64,000 nucleotides of DNA from positions 4,153-68,152 of IMG/VR virus record IMGVR_UViG_3300031998_000067. One strand, given 5' to 3'. The notes beneath the pieces were generated by a model. That model did no database searches. It was not told the DNA's origin and worked only from the letters and a program-made list of their open reading frames with translations. Made by a program: the position numbers and the translations under genes. Source of the stretch: a virus. Taxonomy: Duplodnaviria; Caudoviricetes. Shown here piece after piece: positions 3,372 through 64,000 of the stretch (the stretch's first letter is position 1; each line of letters begins with the position of its first letter).

Positions 3372-3885
3372 ATGAAAAGCATAATTACCCCCCCATCAGA
3401 CAATTCTTGATGCCTGTTGCGGTGGAAGAATGTTCTACTTCGACAAGGAGGATGAGAGGGTTTTATTCCAAGACATCCGCGATGAGGAGGTTCCGTTAAC
3501 CAAGGGTGGGCTGTTCAAAGTCCACCCGGACGTTATCGCCGACTTCCGCGATATGCCTTATCCGGACAACACGTTCCAGATGGTCGTCTTTGATCCTCCG
3601 CACATGGTCTATTACTCCAAGAACAACGACGCGCCACACGAAAGGCGTGGAGACCTCTATGCCGAATATGGTGAGCTGCGCAAGGACTGGAGGGAATATC
3701 TGGAGCGAGGTTTCAAAGAGTGTTTCCGGGTGCTGAAGCCTGGTGGATTTCTCATCTTCAAATGGAGTGAAACCGACATTAAGGTCAAAAGCATTCTGGC
3801 CTTGACTCCAGAGCGCCCAGTCTTCGGACATAAATCCGGAAAGACCATGGGAACACATTGGATTTGTTTTATGAAAAACCTTTAG
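3372..3885 (+). pseudogene. SAM-dependent DNA methyltransferase, frameshifted at a C7 tract
   Basis: ATG 3372 hits TGA at 3408-3410. Motif I (ILDACCGGRMF) and VFDPPH are in another frame. Removing one C from 3388-3394 gives a 170-aa ORF. Confidence 0.85.
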
Positions 3886-3889
3886 CAAT

Positions 3890-4258
3890 ATGAAAGCAAA
3901 AATAATCCGAGACTCAATTTATACTCCCAACCTCGAAGTTGGCGAGATAGTCGAGATTGTTCCCGGAATGGAAACCGATTCCGAGGGCATCTTCAATATC
4001 CCTGGCGGCAAGCTGTTTCTCTGCAAAAAGAGCGACGGCACGTTTGCCTACGAGTTCCCTTCCAATCTCCAGATTGTAGCAGAAGACAAGGTTCGTCCAA
4101 ATGTGTCGTTCGATACCTTCAGGGAAGCCGTGACGCCCGCTCACGAGTTTCTACGAAAGAACTATCACCCGCACGCCGTGATTATCATCGGCTATGATGG
4201 CGCCCACGTGTTCGAGGGTGTGCTTGGTATTCCGCAACTTAATCCGGAAGGAAAATGA
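3890..4258 (+). CDS. hypothetical protein
   Basis: Packed operon ORF. Confidence 0.65.
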   Translation: MKAKIIRDSIYTPNLEVGEIVEIVPGMETDSEGIFNIPGGKLFLCKKSDGTFAYEFPSNLQIVAEDKVRPNVSFDTFREAVTPAHEFLRKNYHPHAVIIIGYDGAHVFEGVLGIPQLNPEGK

Positions 4259-4509
4259 AATTTAGAGTTAGAAGAACATCAAGGAGTTCCTTCAGCAAAG
4301 AGAAACCTTGTGACGACGCCTACCTCGATAAGTTCGTGCCAGATACCAATCATGATTATTTCGACCAGAGTTATTGGGCTATCGACATAGATTCCTTGGA
4401 CGCCCTATTAGCGTTATCCGAAAAAGAGGGAGAAATAATCGTTAGCGCACCGTGTGAATACACAGATAACCTTCCGGAGATAGAAATTTACGACGATTTC
4501 AGAGAATAA
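4255..4509 (+). CDS. hypothetical protein
   Basis: ATGA overlap; acidic C-terminus IEIYDDFRE. Confidence 0.65.
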   Translation: MKFRVRRTSRSSFSKEKPCDDAYLDKFVPDTNHDYFDQSYWAIDIDSLDALLALSEKEGEIIVSAPCEYTDNLPEIEIYDDFRE

Positions 4510-4511
4510 CG

Positions 4512-4829
4512 ATGAAACCAATCTTAATGACCGAAGAATACTGGGCCAACTCCCAGTTCTCCATTGCCCGTTATACCGGCGCGATCAACCTTGATGGCCA
4601 CCGCTTCGTTATCGTTGACAAGACCGGCAAGGACATCTTCGAACTCTCCGCTATCGCAGAGAAGGAGGGTAGAGAGAAGGCCATTGAGCCTGGTGAGCCT
4701 TGCGACCTCATCCGCACTGACTTCATTCCTCTGTACAAGAAGTATGGCCGGGATAAGTTCATTGAAGTGCTCAAGGGGCATCCAGAGGTCGAGACACCGA
4801 AACAGATGGAGGCATTGTTTGAGGTATGA
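4512..4829 (+). CDS. hypothetical protein
   Basis: Packed operon ORF. Confidence 0.65.
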   Translation: MKPILMTEEYWANSQFSIARYTGAINLDGHRFVIVDKTGKDIFELSAIAEKEGREKAIEPGEPCDLIRTDFIPLYKKYGRDKFIEVLKGHPEVETPKQMEALFEV

Positions 4830-4984
4830 AAGAGGAAGAGACTATCGACGAGGGTGATGTAATCGTCATTCATCTCGGCGTAGAACTCTCGGAAGAGAAG
4901 TATAACGAGGTTGTGCAGTCGGTTATCGCCTTTTTGAATACCCGATGGCCGGAGTTTAGTAACAATAGATTTTCGAATTGAGAT

Positions 4985-5407
4985 ATGAAAGCAAACGAAC
5001 TTATGTTGGGCGACTGGGTATATGGATTGTACCCCGACGGTAGTAGATACAAGCCTCCGTTCCGCATTTCTGCGGTTGACACCTATCCGTCAAATAAGAG
5101 CCCACGGATAGTAACAGAAGGTGGGTATGGATTCCAGGAAGAGCACCTTGCTCCAATCCCTATCACCGGCGAAATCTTGGAGAAAAACGGCTTCAAGAGG
5201 GTTCGAGACAAACTCGGCCGTGTGTTCTACTCTATTGCGGACGATTATTTCGACTTGACCATAGACGAGATCACCGATAGCATCTGGTGTGTGGAATATG
5301 ACAACCTCGAGGCGCAATTCCCGACTTGTCGCAATCTGGTGGCGCACGTTCACGAGCTGCAACACGCCTTGAAACTCTATGGCATCGACAAAGAAATCAT
5401 TTTATAG
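4985..5407 (+). CDS. hypothetical phage protein
   Basis: ELMLGDWV...PIPITGEILEKNGF...VHELQHAL, a pattern common in Bacteroidota phages. Confidence 0.7.
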   Translation: MKANELMLGDWVYGLYPDGSRYKPPFRISAVDTYPSNKSPRIVTEGGYGFQEEHLAPIPITGEILEKNGFKRVRDKLGRVFYSIADDYFDLTIDEITDSIWCVEYDNLEAQFPTCRNLVAHVHELQHALKLYGIDKEIIL

Positions 5408-5419
5408 GGAGGACCCACT

Positions 5420-5602
5420 ATGATTGCTGTCGTAACTATGCTCCTCGTTGGATTGAACATAATATCGCAGTTCACCCTAATAAGAAAAGACCACGAGAGG
5501 GTAACGAGAAGGGACTTCGTTACTTTCTTTATCCAGACCATTTTCATAATCATTTGTGTCTTAATTGCCGGGTTTACAATCAAATTTTTATTGAAAGTTT
5601 AG
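5420..5602 (+). CDS. small two-TM protein
   Basis: Two hydrophobic helices. Confidence 0.5.
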   Translation: MIAVVTMLLVGLNIISQFTLIRKDHERVTRRDFVTFFIQTIFIIICVLIAGFTIKFLLKV

Positions 5603-5604
5603 CG

Positions 5605-5799
5605 ATGAAAGAACAAATAATACGCTTGCTTATTGCGGTTTTTATCGGGGTTATACTCATATCTGCCGTAATCGTCTTCATATTCATTATGCACTTTTTG
5701 TTTGATATTCTCGGGCCGAAGAACTTCGGCATCGTGGCTATCATTGTTGGTATTATATGTACTGCCATTTGGGCTTATAAAGAACTTGGAAAACCATGA
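5605..5799 (+). CDS. small two-TM protein
   Basis: ATG 5605 (MKEQIIRLL); two hydrophobic helices. Confidence 0.55.
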   Translation: MKEQIIRLLIAVFIGVILISAVIVFIFIMHFLFDILGPKNFGIVAIIVGIICTAIWAYKELGKP

Positions 5800-6131
5800 C
5801 GCAAAAAGTTAAGATATTCTGCTTGCCAGACGGAACGCCGGTTGGTGCAACGTTCAGTACCACCAATCAAGCCGAGGGACCTGACTACGGAAGACGAGTC
5901 AAGCACAACATCTACCGCGATCGTGAGGACCCCCGGCTCTGGTGGCACGAAAGAGTCTGGCTTTCGCGGCGTAGATATACCAGACCAACATACTTTATGT
6001 TCGTGTCAAAACGCAAGTTCTTCGGAAAGGTTCGGCTTGTAAAGTGCCGTGACGGATGCCTTGCGGACACTTGGAGGACTATCGCCGATAGCATTACCGT
6101 TATGGAATCAAAAGGAGGAAAGAATCAATGA
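5796..6131 (+). CDS. hypothetical basic protein
   Basis: ATGA overlaps at both ends. Confidence 0.55.
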   Translation: MTQKVKIFCLPDGTPVGATFSTTNQAEGPDYGRRVKHNIYRDREDPRLWWHERVWLSRRRYTRPTYFMFVSKRKFFGKVRLVKCRDGCLADTWRTIADSITVMESKGGKNQ

Positions 6132-6343
6132 AAATCAAAGAAATCAAATCCCAGAACCGGCGAGACTTCGTAGCTATCTTCGAATGCGAACACTGCGGGC
6201 ATACCGAAGAGCGCTCAGGCTACGATGATGAGTATTTCCATCGCCACGTTATTCCCGATATGGTCTGCCCGGTCTGTGGCAAGAAAGCGCCAGACACATA
6301 CCGGCCGTTAGCAACCAAATATCCGGAGGGAATGCAAGTATGA
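6128..6343 (+). CDS. Zn-finger protein
   Basis: CEHC and CPVC pairs. Confidence 0.75.
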   Translation: MKIKEIKSQNRRDFVAIFECEHCGHTEERSGYDDEYFHRHVIPDMVCPVCGKKAPDTYRPLATKYPEGMQV

Positions 6344-6672
6344 GAGACCTCAAACTTGTTCTCAAGCGCCAGTGGTACGAGATGATAGAAGCCGGTAAGA
6401 AGTTGGAGGAATACCGCGAGGCGACACCCTTCTGGGGTAAGCGCCTTACCGACCTTATGAATGGGCATCTACTCTTCTCGCACCGCAACGGATATGTGCC
6501 GGTTCCGTTCAAGCATTTCGAGTCCGTCACGTTCTATCTCGGCTACGCCAAAGATCGGCCCTCTATGACCTTCGAGATTAAGGATATGACTTATGACGAA
6601 GGCTACCCGCAGTGGGGAGCGGAGCCTGGCAAGAAATACTTTATAATCAAACTTGGGAAGAGACTGATATGA
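6340..6672 (+). CDS. ASCH/PUA-like domain protein
   Basis: LVLKRQWYEMIEAGKKLEEYR (GxKxxExR signature) and VTFYLGY. Confidence 0.8.
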   Translation: MRDLKLVLKRQWYEMIEAGKKLEEYREATPFWGKRLTDLMNGHLLFSHRNGYVPVPFKHFESVTFYLGYAKDRPSMTFEIKDMTYDEGYPQWGAEPGKKYFIIKLGKRLI

Positions 6673-7070
6673 ATAGCAGAAAGAAGAGACGCGATGCCTT
6701 CAGGGCAAAGCAGATTCGGTGGGAAGATGTCTGGGAGCTACCCTTACATCTTGACGAGTGCGATACTTATGCCTTCTCGAAGAATGGTGTAATGGCATTA
6801 ACTTTTGCCGATGCTGATACCAAGGAGCAGATTCTTGAAAACCGAAGGATCGTAGCAATCATCAACGGCGAAGAAGAGTCCGACCGCCAAAACGAGTATA
6901 TTCACAACGGCTATGCGGACATCTCTTGTGACGCAGAGCGCATTGTGTTTAGCGTTCGCGGATGGGGCCACCTCACCGGCACTGGCGGGCTTCGTCTGCC
7001 GGAGAAGGGTGCGGCCAGAATCCAAGACGACTTCATTGCCTATATCTTGAAACGACTTAATGGAGAGTAG
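6669..7070 (+). CDS. hypothetical protein
   Basis: ATG 6669; VRGWGHLTG motif. Confidence 0.65.
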   Translation: MNSRKKRRDAFRAKQIRWEDVWELPLHLDECDTYAFSKNGVMALTFADADTKEQILENRRIVAIINGEEESDRQNEYIHNGYADISCDAERIVFSVRGWGHLTGTGGLRLPEKGAARIQDDFIAYILKRLNGE

Positions 7071-7071
7071 T

Positions 7072-7502
7072 ATGAGAATCCAAGCGTGCCTCACAAGCAA
7101 CTCTAACGAATGGGCGACTCCGCAGAAGTTCTATGAAGAGCTGGATGCGGAGTTTCATTTTAACCTCGATCCTTGCTCCACCCACGAAAATGCCAAATGC
7201 GAGCGGCATTTCACTCTGGAAGACAATGGATTAGCACGTGATTGGGGGGGGCAAGAGTGTTCTGCAACCCGCCATACGGCCGTGAAATTGCCACGTGGGT
7301 ACGCAAGTGTTACGAGGAGTCTCGCAAGCCGGACACCCTCGTGGTTATGCTCATTCCGGCAAGGACGGATACGGCATACTTCCACGACTTTATCTATCAC
7401 AAGGCCGATGAGATTCGTTTCATCCGTGGTCGGTTACATTTTAATGAGTCAAAACAAGGGGCTCCGTTCCCCTCAATGGTTGTAATTTATGGGAGAAATT
7501 GA
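7072..7502 (+). pseudogene. phage Dam-like DNA N6-adenine methyltransferase, frameshifted at a G8 tract
   Basis: N-half (EWATP, LDPC) is in one frame and C-half (VFCNPPY, LIPARTDT) in another. G8 at 7244-7251; G9 gives DWGGARVFCNPPY and a 143-aa ORF. Confidence 0.9.
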
Positions 7503-11465: not shown

Positions 11466-12644
11466 TTATACTAAATTAAGATTGTGGATTTTACATATCA
11501 GTTCATTATGCTTGAATCCCGGACGGAGGCCGAGGATATTCTTATGCTCTCTCAATTCAACGAATGTCTTCCACTTCGGGTTCAAAGACTCATACCCACG
11601 GCGGAGTATGGCATACCCTTGGCGGTTACGCAGAATGCCGAAATAGGAGTCCAGAGATGATACCATACGCTCAACATTCTTTATCGACACGCGCCGATTC
11701 CAATACCGTATCTTGCGGAAGAAATTATAGACGGTGCGGTTTCCGGGGTAAATACGATCGGGCTTGACAATCTGGGAGCAGAAACGGGCTCCCTTCGAAT
11801 AGTGCTGGCAATAGAATTTCTTCTTATGGACCAGACATCCTATGGCCTCCATCCGGGCGCGGAACTCTGGCATGATAAGATTCAAAAACTGCTCTTTGTT
11901 CTTGAAAACAAAGGCAAAATCGTCGCCATATACGGTGACACGGACGCCGCATGATAGAAGCCACTTTATCACCTCGTCGTGATAATAGGTCATTGCTATC
12001 TGCATAATAATCTTTCCGGGGGCGGCGCCAACACCCTCCGGTTTATTCATAAGGCTCTTATTCGGCGGAACCCGAAGCCAATCTTGCGCGGGGCAACGTC
12101 GTTCAGACGCCCTGGCATTGAAATAGATGCTCATCCGGAGCAAATAGATGAGTTCATCCTTCAGGTCCGACTCTATATCAGCATCGAGAAGCAACTTCTT
12201 CAAGATGTTATAACTACGATCCTGATTTGCGTTAGGAAAGTATCCCGAGAGATCAGCAACGGCTACATAGCAATCCTCCGTGTAACCATTGCTGAGTTCA
12301 AATATGTCTTCGGCAAGACAATTCAGTGCGCGGTCAAGCCCCATTCCGATACGGTTATTGAAAACCCTTGGATTGATGTCTTTTTCAATAAGAGGACGAA
12401 GGCGCCTCTCCAGACGATGTTCAACCGTGCACTGGGCTATATCTGCGGAATAGACCTCCCGGATTACGGGAGAAAAGACGACATAAGCAGAAGACGTCGG
12501 GCGCAGGGTGCGTTGCTCTATGTCGTCGCGCAACTTGTTAAGGTTCGCACAACGATGCAGATCAAAAGCGACATAATCGGGATTATGCGATTTGTTTTTA
12601 ACCGCATCACGATAATCCGAATATAACTCTCTCAAACTTACCAT
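11466..12644 (-). CDS. DGR reverse transcriptase
   Basis: ADLSGYF (motif A) and YGDD (motif C); 392 aa with no endonuclease domain; directly downstream of the TR. Confidence 0.95.
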   Translation of the reverse strand: MVSLRELYSDYRDAVKNKSHNPDYVAFDLHRCANLNKLRDDIEQRTLRPTSSAYVVFSPVIREVYSADIAQCTVEHRLERRLRPLIEKDINPRVFNNRIGMGLDRALNCLAEDIFELSNGYTEDCYVAVADLSGYFPNANQDRSYNILKKLLLDADIESDLKDELIYLLRMSIYFNARASERRCPAQDWLRVPPNKSLMNKPEGVGAAPGKIIMQIAMTYYHDEVIKWLLSCGVRVTVYGDDFAFVFKNKEQFLNLIMPEFRARMEAIGCLVHKKKFYCQHYSKGARFCSQIVKPDRIYPGNRTVYNFFRKIRYWNRRVSIKNVERMVSSLDSYFGILRNRQGYAILRRGYESLNPKWKTFVELREHKNILGLRPGFKHNELICKIHNLNLV

Positions 12645-26726: not shown

Positions 26727-27159
26727 CTAATCGGCATCGCCATTGAACACCTCTTCCACCGTGTACCCCTCCTTCTCCTGGCGGGCCTTTCTTCTTGCCG
26801 CAGCCCTCTCATCCGCTTGCCTCTGGAGTTCGAAGGCCGGATCATTGGGATTATAGAGTTTGTCCCCATCCTTCGCCTTGTAGTTGTAGAGCGTATGCGG
26901 CAGATCGCTCTGCATCAACTGCTTTTTTGCGCGGGACAGTACCGCGTATGAATCCCACTCCGGGACAGTCACAAGACCGAAAAAGAATCTCCGCGACAGT
27001 CCGTACTGCGGGAAATCCTTTATGAAGGCTGCTCTTCGCCCGATTTCGGTGTAAGAGGGGATGGGCTTTGAGTCGCCATTGTCTTGAGGTCGGCTCTTAT
27101 AGCCTTCCCTAATCCCAAACTCATCGAATACCAGTTCAAGAGATTTGCCGTTTTTTTTT
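26727..27159 (-). CDS. tail chaperone T segment, -1 frameshift extension
   Basis: Open -1 frame from the A9 slippery site to the stop just before the tape measure. Confidence 0.65.
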
Positions 27160-27529
27160 GAGCCTCTGCGAGCACGCTCGCCACCTGGGACTCGTCGAGT
27201 CGCCAGACGTAGGCCCACCACCTCCAAACCAGAGGGAACCACAAACGCAGTTTCCAATAGTCATTGAGAACATAGCATACCGCGATCTTGAGGTTGAGAT
27301 ACGGATGCTTGGCGACGGAGCGCATCAGGTCTTCCGCCTCCTTCGCCTGTTCCTCCTGTTCCTCCCTCTCAAGGAGAAGCCTCGTTACCTTATCCACCGT
27401 GCAGTCACGGAGAAAGCCCAGCTTCACTTTGTGTCGTGTGCCGGGGATAGATACTACTGTCGGGGTGTCGTTAAGAATCGACATCACCGCCTGTCTCGCC
27501 GCAAGGGAGGGCTGTTTTTCTTCTGCCAT
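27020..27529 (-). CDS. tail assembly chaperone G
   Basis: Between major tail and tape measure; contains CAA AAA AAA ACG. Confidence 0.75.
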   Translation of the reverse strand: MAEEKQPSLAARQAVMSILNDTPTVVSIPGTRHKVKLGFLRDCTVDKVTRLLLEREEQEEQAKEAEDLMRSVAKHPYLNLKIAVCYVLNDYWKLRLWFPLVWRWWAYVWRLDESQVASVLAEAQKKTANLLNWYSMSLGLGKAIRADLKTMATQSPSPLTPKSGEEQPS

Positions 27530-29591: not shown

Positions 29592-29969
29592 CTATTTTCT
29601 GCGCCGGGGGCATACTCGGATACCCCCAAGCGCAAAATGAATCGTCGATTTCGCCGAGTTAAGGCCATACTTGGCAAGGAGATCAAGACCCATCTGGCGC
29701 ATAAGCCTCTTGTCGTAGGCGGAACTCTGCTTGCCACCTTCCCGGTGGGACCACCCACTGTCCGAGTCCTCGACGGAGCCCGTAATGGAAGGAGTGGACG
29801 CGCACCAGAGATAGGTGTATGCTTTGCAGAGGTCCATCTGCTTGACGGTGAGGCTCGTCACCTCGGAGCCAGCGGGAACGCCCGCATCAATCAGGACGTT
29901 CTCGATGGCGCCGTCAGTGATGTCGAACGCCGTCAGGTCTTTCAGATAATCTTCTATCAGTTTGGCCAT
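29592..29969 (-). CDS. head-tail adaptor
   Basis: Follows the capsid; DSDSGWSHREGG. Confidence 0.65.
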   Translation of the reverse strand: MAKLIEDYLKDLTAFDITDGAIENVLIDAGVPAGSEVTSLTVKQMDLCKAYTYLWCASTPSITGSVEDSDSGWSHREGGKQSSAYDKRLMRQMGLDLLAKYGLNSAKSTIHFALGGIRVCPRRRK

Positions 29970-55114: not shown

Positions 55115-55395
55115 ATGGTTAAAATTATCATTGAACTCGATGAGAATTACATCGAACAGAGGTCAAATCCTGACAATCTTGACAAGTTGGAGGGGGGGGC
55201 AATCCGTTAAGGGCATTTGCTGACATCCTTTCCTTCGGCATGATCAACAGTGAAGTCAAAGGCGGCAAGACGGAGTTTCCCGTCAACCGTGAGTCGCTTG
55301 ACGACAACGGTAAGCAACTCTTCGATAACACCGTTACGCACTTCTGTGCGCTCGCGGGCATTATGAAGAAGAAGGAAGAGAAGAAGGAAGAGTAG
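55115..55395 (+). pseudogene. small gene frameshifted at a G8 tract
   Basis: ATG 55115 stops just after G8 (55192-55199); G9 gives a continuous 93-aa ORF (NPLRAFADILSFG...). Confidence 0.7.
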
Positions 55396-55401
55396 TAATA
55401 C

Positions 55402-56130
55402 ATGGAAATCAACGGCAAGGCTTGGCTACTCTTTGAGCAATCGGGAGTTTTCAAGCAAGAGTTTATCAAGTTAGGTATTCCGGCCATCGATGTGGATATT
55501 CAAGACAACTTTGGCCAGACTGACTACCAGATAGACTTGTTTGCCGAAATCGAGTCCGCGTATAGGGGGGGGGTAAGCCTGTTCGACCAGATTACCAAAG
55601 ATGATGTGGTCTTGGCTTTCTTCCCCTGCATCTACTTCGAGGCTATGCAGATGATGGAGTACACCTTCGAGCATCTGAACCAACGTGGCCTCACCACCAA
55701 GCAGAAGTTTGACCGAGTTGTGGAGCGAATCGAGAACAGAGAGAGGTTCTTGATTTTGCTCTACAAACTGGTCGAAATCGCTCAGGTCCGTGGCCTCCGG
55801 CTCATCATCGAGAATCCGGCCACGCAACCGCACTACCTTCTGCTCACCCAGGTCTTCCTCCGGCCGACAATCATTGATAAGGATCGCACACGAAGAGGAG
55901 ACTACTTCAAGAAACCTACCGCTTACTGGTTCATCAACTGCGAACCGACACAAGGCGAGACGCTGCAAGACCCGGAGAAACGCAAGACCATCCTCTCCAG
56001 TAAGGCCGGTGCCAAGGCGGGCATCTGCTCCGAGGAGCGGTCGATGATGTCACCAGACTATGCCCGCAATTTCATTGCAGATTTTATCCTCGGGCGCAAG
56101 CAAGAGGTTGGGCAACTACAACTATTCTAA
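55402..56130 (+). CDS. C5-cytosine methyltransferase-like protein with in-frame G9
   Basis: LFEQSG (motif I-like), FFPC (IV), IIENP (VI); G9 at 55565-55573. Confidence 0.7.
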   Translation: MEINGKAWLLFEQSGVFKQEFIKLGIPAIDVDIQDNFGQTDYQIDLFAEIESAYRGGVSLFDQITKDDVVLAFFPCIYFEAMQMMEYTFEHLNQRGLTTKQKFDRVVERIENRERFLILLYKLVEIAQVRGLRLIIENPATQPHYLLLTQVFLRPTIIDKDRTRRGDYFKKPTAYWFINCEPTQGETLQDPEKRKTILSSKAGAKAGICSEERSMMSPDYARNFIADFILGRKQEVGQLQLF

Positions 56131-63158: not shown

Positions 63159-63976
63159 AAGAAGACATCATCTTTACCGCAGAGCCGCAGCAGATGCACG
63201 GCAAGTATGTGGCGGAAGACCTCAACCGAACGTGGAAAGAGGTCGAAGAGAAGACCGATCCCAAGGACGGCCACAAGTTCAACGCCGAGGTTGAGAAGAA
63301 AGAACTCATCCTCAAGAGGGGCACCCTTCTGGATGCCGACAACATCCAGGTAGTTCAGTTCCATCTCCAGGCCGGGGACATCACCGGAGTGTACTGCTCC
63401 GCTATTCAACGCCGCGCTATCCTCGCATCGCCTCCGGCGTGGCAGAAGCCGTGGAAGATTCAAGTGGAGAATTCTGTGAAGCCCACCAAGCACACGGTTA
63501 TCCTCTATGCCAAGACCGTCACCGATGCTCTGGCCATCACGGCCGAGTATATGGAGCGCACCTACGACGGCATCTTCACCTTCAAGAGTGTGGGTAATTT
63601 CGACAGCGCAACATTTGTTGCTCCAAAGCCCCGCGAGTTGAAGGAGGGCGAGAAGGCTCCCGAGCTGAACTTCTACCAGATTTCCATCTCCGCCCGTTGG
63701 CGTGACGACAATGATGAGCAGAACGGCACCATCATCCTCCAGTCCGAGAACGTGGACGAGGCTCTGGCTGTGATTGAGAAGATCATCACCGAGCGTCGTG
63801 AGAAGTTCGTTAAGGAACTCAAGGCCAACTCCAAGGATGAGGAGCGAATCAAGGGTGAGACCAAGAAACTCAAAGCCGGATTCGTCCTCACTCTCAACGA
63901 GGCGAAGATTATCAAGTGCACGGACATCGTGCCGAAGGAACTCTCCGACTCGTTCTATCCTGACGACCGTAAGTAA
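63155..63976 (+). CDS. hypothetical protein
   Basis: 273-aa ORF with good codon bias. Confidence 0.7.
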   Translation: MKEDIIFTAEPQQMHGKYVAEDLNRTWKEVEEKTDPKDGHKFNAEVEKKELILKRGTLLDADNIQVVQFHLQAGDITGVYCSAIQRRAILASPPAWQKPWKIQVENSVKPTKHTVILYAKTVTDALAITAEYMERTYDGIFTFKSVGNFDSATFVAPKPRELKEGEKAPELNFYQISISARWRDDNDEQNGTIILQSENVDEALAVIEKIITERREKFVKELKANSKDEERIKGETKKLKAGFVLTLNEAKIIKCTDIVPKELSDSFYPDDRK

Positions 63977-64000
63977 GGAAAAAGGCGCGGGTGCGGTACT

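Follow-up and report, generated by a model that had tools for sequence, protein, structure and literature searches.

Homopolymer tracts as probable contingency loci in the DNA methyltransferase genes of a tailed phage

Introduction

That simple-sequence repeats can switch DNA methyltransferase (MTase) genes is textbook knowledge for bacteria, where phase-variable enzymes include the Type III mod genes of Haemophilus, Neisseria, Moraxella and Streptococcus suis and the Type IIG gene cj0031 of Campylobacter (PMC4889913; reviewed in PMC11868660 and PMC13076061). In these systems, repeats within the coding region give reversible frameshifts between ON and OFF states, several switching MTases may reside in one genome, and the enzymes are part of cellular restriction-modification systems, whose defining feature is a methylation-dependent regulon. 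Here, we describe a 64-kb window (positions 4,153 to 68,152, numbered from 1 in what follows) of the 68,152-base, metagenome-assembled IMG/VR record IMGVR_UViG_3300031998_000067, from a gut or rumen phage, in which four G/C homopolymer tracts are probably genuine simple-sequence contingency loci that switch MTase genes reversibly. As in the bacterial systems, the repeats sit in coding regions and more than one MTase of the genome is concerned. Unlike their bacterial counterparts, the enzymes described here are solitary phage proteins that lack a nuclease partner, and their presumed benefit is the protection of the phage genome itself.

The closest described phage system is that of the Bordetella phage BPP-1 and its adenine methylase gene bpm, whose poly-G run has been reported as a frameshift hot spot at which expression might be controlled (Liu et al., 2004, J Bacteriol 186:1503, as cited in PMC4791379 and bioRxiv 10.1101/2025.10.21.683753). 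In its genome (L223), codon 195 of bpm falls on a G8 run at 29922-29929, which is the sole G/C run of seven or more in 42.5 kb. Both BPP-1 and the phage described here are temperate phages that combine a diversity-generating retroelement (DGR) with a poly-G run inside their own adenine methylase, and in both the G/C tracts are concentrated in MTase genes. The two differ in that Bpm, at 251 aa, is a beta-class DPPY enzyme from another family than all three genes considered here, and in that BPP-1 carries one tract in one gene, whereas the present phage carries tracts in all three MTase genes and an adjacent small open reading frame (ORF). The tract sites described below recur, moreover, in many phages of the gut and rumen whose hosts are Bacteroidota and Firmicutes.

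Contingency loci have also been described in phage genes of other functions. Poly-G tracts are reported for the receptor-binding genes of Campylobacter Fletchervirus phages (Sorensen et al., 2021, cited in PMC12823448), while in phage T2 the DNA-modification gene agt, which encodes a glucosyltransferase, is a contingency locus whose OFF state was shown experimentally to evade a defence directed at modified DNA (Gomez, Barrick and Waters, 2025, bioRxiv 10.1101/2025.10.21.683753). In these phages, as proposed here, hypermutable homopolymers yield mixed progeny as a form of bet-hedging, and agt follows the same logic of switching off a modification enzyme to evade defence. In contrast to the receptor-binding proteins of Fletchervirus and the glucosyltransferase of T2, the genes at issue here encode putative DNA methyltransferases, several modification genes are involved in combination, and the hosts are different. 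The Quimbyviridae, Bacteroidales phages of about 75 kb, have DGRs and four methyltransferases, and the word "homopolymer" does not occur in the paper that describes them (PMC8008677). A search of the open literature, with subscription journals outside its reach, brought up no account of repeat-switched methylases in phages of the gut or rumen. The principle of the switch is not new, having been reported for BPP-1 in 2004; what the present case adds is that all three MTase families of one phage carry tracts, that repeats of different types have converged on a single loop, and that a tract has been kept across synonymous saturation.

Tract content of the genome

The record encodes the large terminase (TerL), portal, 1,770-aa tape measure protein and primase-helicase of a tailed phage, together with a DGR-type reverse transcriptase, the last of which (phrog_1423) lies on the minus strand at 11466-12641. 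The window contains exactly four G/C runs of seven or more, a C7, two G8 and a G9, and the same four are all that the full 68,152-base genome holds. This confirms the preliminary description, which had counted four such runs in 64 kb by eye and placed three of them in MTase-like genes. Three of the four tracts lie inside MTase genes, which make up about 2.5% of the genome, and the fourth (G8, 55192-55199) lies in the small ORF that adjoins the third MTase gene, so that all tracts are in or beside MTase genes. Profile searches of the genome with PF01555, PF00145 and PF02086 found no further MTase genes, and thus every recognisable MTase of this phage has a tract. As with Bpm of BPP-1, a G/C run within a phage DNA methylase stands out against the genome as a whole. 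In each of the four ORFs the tract lies within the coding region and sets its frame, as checked by translation, and retranslation also returned every coordinate and frame count given earlier for the C7 and the G8 tracts. In the assembled states, the first MTase gene (C7), the Dam-family gene (G8) and the small ORF (G8) are OFF, while the third MTase gene (G9) is ON.

The raw number of tracts is not unusual, as a dinucleotide model predicts about seven G/C runs of seven or more where four are found. It is the distribution of run lengths that is unusual, with 236 runs of four bases, 35 of five and only one of six, followed by the runs of 7, 8, 8 and 9. Markov models of order 3-4, which reproduce the avoidance of G/C runs in this genome, predict 0.23-0.28 runs of eight or more compared to the three observed, and 0-0.7% of simulations reach three. 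Codon usage likewise fails to account for the tracts. The preliminary description had cautioned that Trp-Gly-Gly codons would naturally produce G runs, but GGG is the rarest glycine codon in the genome (13%), and across some 8,000 codons of confident genes GGG-GGG encodes none of the 41 Gly-Gly pairs, so that this caveat does not explain the runs.

MTase1 and the Dam-family gene

The first of the three genes, MTase1 (3372..3885, plus strand), is predicted to encode a small, amino-type (DPPH) DNA methyltransferase dependent on S-adenosylmethionine, and its C7 tract (3388..3394, plus strand) covers codons 6-8, upstream of motif I. The ATG at 3372 reads MKSIITPPSDNS and reaches a stop after 12 codons, with the body of the enzyme at 3385-3885 lying in the +1 frame, where motif I (ILDACCGG) is followed by motif IV (DPPH). 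A tract of C9 or C6 would bring the two into frame, and a natural in-frame allele of 171 aa (P0122), 98% identical and starting MKSIITPPHQTILDACCGG (MKSIITPPHQ...), corresponds to the C9 reading. MTase1 matches the "DNA methyltransferase" family phrog_954 (E 6.7e-65) and Pfam Methyltransf_11 (29.8 bits, cut-off 21.2), while its score against PF01555 N6_N4_Mtase (18.8-19.5 bits) stays under the 26.7 cut-off for membership of that family; the gene is thus amino-type by resemblance only. Sequence searches of the PDB with MTase1 and with the third gene, MTase3, returned nothing useful. Among close relatives, the MTase1 tract is found as C8 in an OFF allele (L149), C8 in an ON allele (L146) and C9 in two ON alleles (L144, L001). 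More distant homologues have neither the tract nor the short N-terminal extension in which it is held.

The second gene (7072..7502, plus strand), which is OFF, belongs to the Dam family (PF05869) of N6-adenine DNA methyltransferases, and its G8 tract (7244..7251, plus strand) falls at Trp-Gly-Gly codons just before FCNPPY. The N-terminal half (7072-7251) ends in DWGG, and the C-terminal half (7251-7502), which reads RVFCNPPYG..., continues in the -1 frame. Each half matches PF05869, and they do so on adjoining positions of the profile, 7-60 for the first (52.0 bits, E 9e-14) and 61-134 for the second (51.8 bits, E 1e-13). G9 or G6 would join them. An in-frame allele of 143 aa (P0002), 99% identical and located on a 69,062-base contig of a near-identical phage, reads ...DWGGARVFCNPPY, also given as ...DWGGARVFCNPPYG (WGGARVFC), which is the G9 reading; it contains FCNPPYG and scores 111.2 bits against PF05869 (cut-off 28.1). 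Both splits had been proposed in the preliminary description, together with the lengths that would repair them (C6 or C9 before motif I of MTase1, G9 or G6 before NPPY of the Dam-like gene), and for each gene one of these lengths now has a natural allele. The "adenine/amino-type" label that it applied to the two genes holds for the Dam-family gene, by PF05869 and NPPY, and is qualified for MTase1 as stated above. A one-base deletion beside the Dam tract (CAG to CA, by comparison with L024) was considered as the cause of the break and rejected, because the 99%-identical P0002 reads WGGARVFC. We also observe that, when the gene is out of frame, the reading frame of the N-terminal half runs on without a stop for about 78 codons past the tract (7252-7485), overlapping nearly all of the C-terminal half, such that the OFF allele would give a chimera of 137 aa and not a short stub; the chance of such an open frame is about 2%.

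A record assembled from a metagenome raises the question of homopolymer error, in which case the genes would truly be in frame and the C7 and G8 tracts miscalled by sequencing or assembly. Long G/C runs are classic sites of indel error, each frame break needs a change of just one or two bases, and the overlap of the contig ends at 96% identity means that at least two strains were in the sample. We consider this explanation unlikely. An independent metagenome contig (L183), which differs by one substitution in 1,417 bases (99.93% identical), repeats the C7, and no other gene of the phage is frameshifted: the tape measure, TerL, portal and helicase genes are intact, 21 runs of five bases in large genes are undamaged, and the sole A/T run of nine is a slippery site expected in a tailed phage (see below). 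Error would also have to contend with the repeats of other kinds in MTase3 and with the behaviour of the tracts among relatives, which are described in turn below.

MTase3 and the adjoining small ORF

The third gene, MTase3 (55402..56130, plus strand), resembles C5-cytosine methyltransferases; it encodes 242 aa, is ON, and carries the motifs FEQSG, FFPC and ENP. Its G9 tract (55565..55573, plus strand) is in frame and lies in a variable loop, residues 54-58, upstream of FFPC. MTase3 matches the "DNA methyltransferase" family phrog_757 (E 2.4e-23), and a Pfam search gave no match, PF00145 included. FFPC and ENP are invariant in 11 aligned homologues, with motif I being atypical (FEQSG). In an AlphaFold model of the protein (predicted local distance difference test, pLDDT, 73; predicted template-modelling score, pTM, 0.77), the best PDB matches are all C5 MTases, namely DNMT3A/3B, DNMT1 and M.HaeIII (Foldseek E 3e-4, probability 1.0), at template-modelling scores of only 0.4-0.5.

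The loop that holds the G9 tract is occupied by repeats in other phages as well. Seven IMG/VR homologues carry G8-G11 at this site, some in frame and some out. Elsewhere, the same loop holds (AAGAC)x6 (L135), (CAGGCAA)x4 (L128) or a 7-mer CAACAGA repeat (L137), at positions 1650-1700 in each, where the first and the last of these alleles are out of frame and the second is in frame. This convergence of different repeat units on one permissive loop is the strongest sign of selection for mutability. Mixed unit sizes at a single site are hard to attribute to coding constraint or to error, and homopolymer miscalling in particular fails to explain repeats of 5-mers and 7-mers.

Directly upstream is the small ORF (55115..55395, plus strand), which is split in this assembly by the G8 tract inside it (55192..55199, plus strand); with G9 it would have 93 codons and end 6 bases before the MTase3 gene. 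Three readings of it occur. The G9 allele (P0242; 93 aa, 98% identical) has the N-terminus MVKIIIELDE... and reads ...LEGGGNPLRAF, while the G7 allele (P0243; 84 aa, 91% identical) uses an alternative N-terminus, MRITSNRGQ..., from 55140. With G8, as in this assembly, neither N-terminus is joined, and a 51-aa remnant (P0244) is called on 7 contigs. No Pfam or PHROG family matched the small ORF, whose protein has a tail rich in lysine and glutamate. Judged by these alleles, the ORF looks like a three-state switch, and it could have an accessory or regulatory role in the same switch as MTase3.

Tract behaviour among relatives

How the tract behaves over longer times is best seen in the Dam-family gene, which we surveyed in 80 IMG/VR loci plus the window, with ON and OFF states assigned from tblastn frames, since a simple rule that called frames open for at least 55 codons ON misassigned some loci and was replaced. 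The homologous site holds G7-G10 in 49 of these loci, 24 of them out of frame and 25 in frame. Being out of frame goes with the tract itself, as these 24 of 49 loci with G7 or longer compare with 1 of 30 with a tract of five or shorter (Fisher p = 1e-5). Two loci from different metagenomes, one G8 and OFF (L085) and the other G9 and ON (L091), are identical over 6,249 bases but for a single gap in the tract. Four others (L034, L037, L043, L045) have G8, G7, G9 and G9 at flank identities of 96.6-99.9%, and a further pair (L031 and L032) has G6 and G7 at 99.6% identity. Tract length is thus the fastest-changing character among these relatives, and ON and OFF lengths coexist among near-identical genomes, both in such pairs and in the P0002, P0122 and P0242 alleles. 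Megablast searches with both MTase regions found no match among GenBank phages, and a pattern of the exact flanks of the Dam G8 tract found none in IMG/VR, in a search that may leave aside close relatives of the record itself. For the slipped-strand toggling of MTase genes put forward in the preliminary description, the restoring lengths found in near-identical phages (C9 in P0122, G9 in P0002 and in P0242) provide support.

The tract is also kept far beyond what codon usage predicts. Among 63 distinct Dam homologues, which are not phylogenetically independent but between which synonymous sites are saturated, 41 have G7-G10 at the site, where about 4% would be expected, as GGG accounts for 19% of all other glycine codons in these genes. 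The preliminary description had asked for tract conservation across homologues as a check, and would have been contradicted by homologues that break the runs with synonymous codons; most instead keep them unbroken. Sequencing error fails to explain why homologues keep GGG-GGG against codon usage. Also against error, about 19 of the best 120 protein clusters are split pieces from many sources, C-terminal fragments of 78-106 aa such as gene callers make from out-of-frame alleles. Five short PHROG families (phrog_22740, 6083, 6151, 11564 and 7811; 41-117 positions), one of them labelled "unknown function", match only the N-terminal or the C-terminal halves of the methylases, and look like families built from genes split at tracts.

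Bacterial genomes of two phyla also carry tract-bearing Dam homologues, within prophage regions. Out-of-frame copies occur in prophages of cultured Firmicutes isolates, with G10 in Pseudoflavonifractor sp. Marseille-P3106 and G7 in Clostridium zeae CSC2, and related copies in metagenome-assembled genomes have G8, G9 (in frame) and G10.

With two of three MTases and the small ORF broken in the consensus, the genes might be taken for pseudogenes in the course of being lost, the tracts being merely the points at which they broke. Between Dam lineages that are all OFF, however, nonsynonymous divergence (dN) is 0.08-0.26, far under a synonymous divergence (dS) that is saturated and cannot be estimated, and both halves of the gene are therefore under purifying selection. 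Since both halves are selected and the G run outlives synonymous randomisation, simple pseudogene decay is excluded; in whatever form, gene loss is highly improbable here, as neither half has lost a motif or gained another lesion, the breaks occur only at the tract, and ON alleles exist at 98-99% identity. A tract retained in a gene that is not decaying fits a reversible switch, with a recoding signal being less likely.

Under such recoding, OFF alleles would still yield full-length enzyme by ribosomal frameshifting or transcriptional slippage, and the tract would tune expression. The sequences lend this some formal plausibility, in that G GGG GGG qualifies as an X XXY YYZ heptamer and a -1 shift would mend the Dam break, while CCC-C is known to be prone to the +1 shift that MTase1 needs. 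Purifying selection does act on out-of-frame lineages, and in one clade of the survey (L060-L065, L071, L074, L082 and L083), which spans several lineages, G9 is uniform and leaves the gene out of frame where G8 would be in frame, with G10 (L079) as the only variant. It is on account of this uniform clade (L060-L083) that recoding keeps some weight. We nevertheless regard it as improbable, as homologues need opposite shifts, -1 in the window and +1 in the L014 and L060 clades, and in-frame alleles exist within the same phage lineage, which a fixed recoding signal would not need. RNA folding predicted no significant structure behind any of the tracts (z -1.2 to +0.1), and there is thus no support for a frameshift stimulator.

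Proposed mechanism and its limits

The mechanism we propose for reversible switching is that slipped-strand mispairing during phage or prophage DNA replication adds or removes tract bases, and that each change in length would move one of the three MTase genes, or the small ORF, into or out of frame, from which it could later return. Three MTases that switch independently would give up to eight methylation states among progeny. With a methylase ON, the phage genome would be shielded from host restriction of unmethylated sites, while with it OFF the phage may evade methylation-dependent (Type IV-like) defences and would avoid any cost of methylating the chromosome of its lysogen. It is reasonable to infer that the switches hedge against restriction systems. 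How fast they switch, which sites are methylated and what agent selects for them are likewise inferred rather than observed, and the label "phasevarion", which denotes a methylation-controlled regulon and was suggested in the preliminary description, is not justified by present evidence.

Several points weigh against switching. The clade that is uniformly G9 and OFF sits oddly with a switch that fluctuates freely; it could reflect recoding, sustained selection for the OFF state, or a bias of the sequencing platform. Tract lengths are those of an assembled consensus, from which both the lengths within the population and the true consensus of the sample may depart, and which may mix at least two strains, as the 96% identity of the contig ends suggests. 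Systematic homopolymer bias of metagenome sequencing platforms could inflate the number of OFF alleles. Finally, the roles of MTase1 and MTase3 as DNA methyltransferases are predictions, drawn from PHROG matches and fold similarity only.

Other features of the genome

The first 748 bases of the contig (genome positions 1-748, outside the window) and its last 748 (window 63253-64000) are 96.3% identical, with 28 mismatches and 0 gaps. The genome is therefore probably circular or terminally redundant, of about 67.4 kb and near complete, as compared to its label in the record of "linear, 70% complete".

The window has a single A/T run of nine, an A9 on the minus strand at 27151-27159, where the ORFs 27529..27020 and 27257..26727 overlap. 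It forms the slippery site C AAA AAA AAC in a pair of tail-assembly-chaperone ORFs that lie immediately upstream of the tape measure gene, and a -1 shift at this site fuses ...AEAQKK to KNGKSLELVFDEF... Programmed frameshifts of this G/GT type are conserved in tailed phages.

Implications

It is possible, and we put it forward tentatively, that phase-variable self-methylation is a general and largely unrecognised counter-defence among phages of the gut and rumen whose hosts span the Bacteroidota and Firmicutes. Convergent slippery repeats (poly-G, poly-C, 5-mers and 7-mers), kept by selection at permissive loops of several unrelated solitary MTase families, would then give progeny with combinatorial methylomes, eight states in the present phage, that balance restriction of unmethylated DNA against that of methylated DNA. 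The findings carry the recent claim that contingency loci are used by phages over to genes for DNA modification in the gut virome, and two cultured hosts of tract-bearing prophages, Pseudoflavonifractor sp. Marseille-P3106 and Clostridium zeae CSC2, offer entry points for direct tests. Annotation of "split" methylase genes would be affected, as pipelines may treat OFF alleles as separate proteins, and so would the reading of methylation-based host assignment for metagenomic phages. If the switches work as proposed, a single phage stock would be epigenetically heterogeneous by design, with consequences for how host range and restriction escape are measured.

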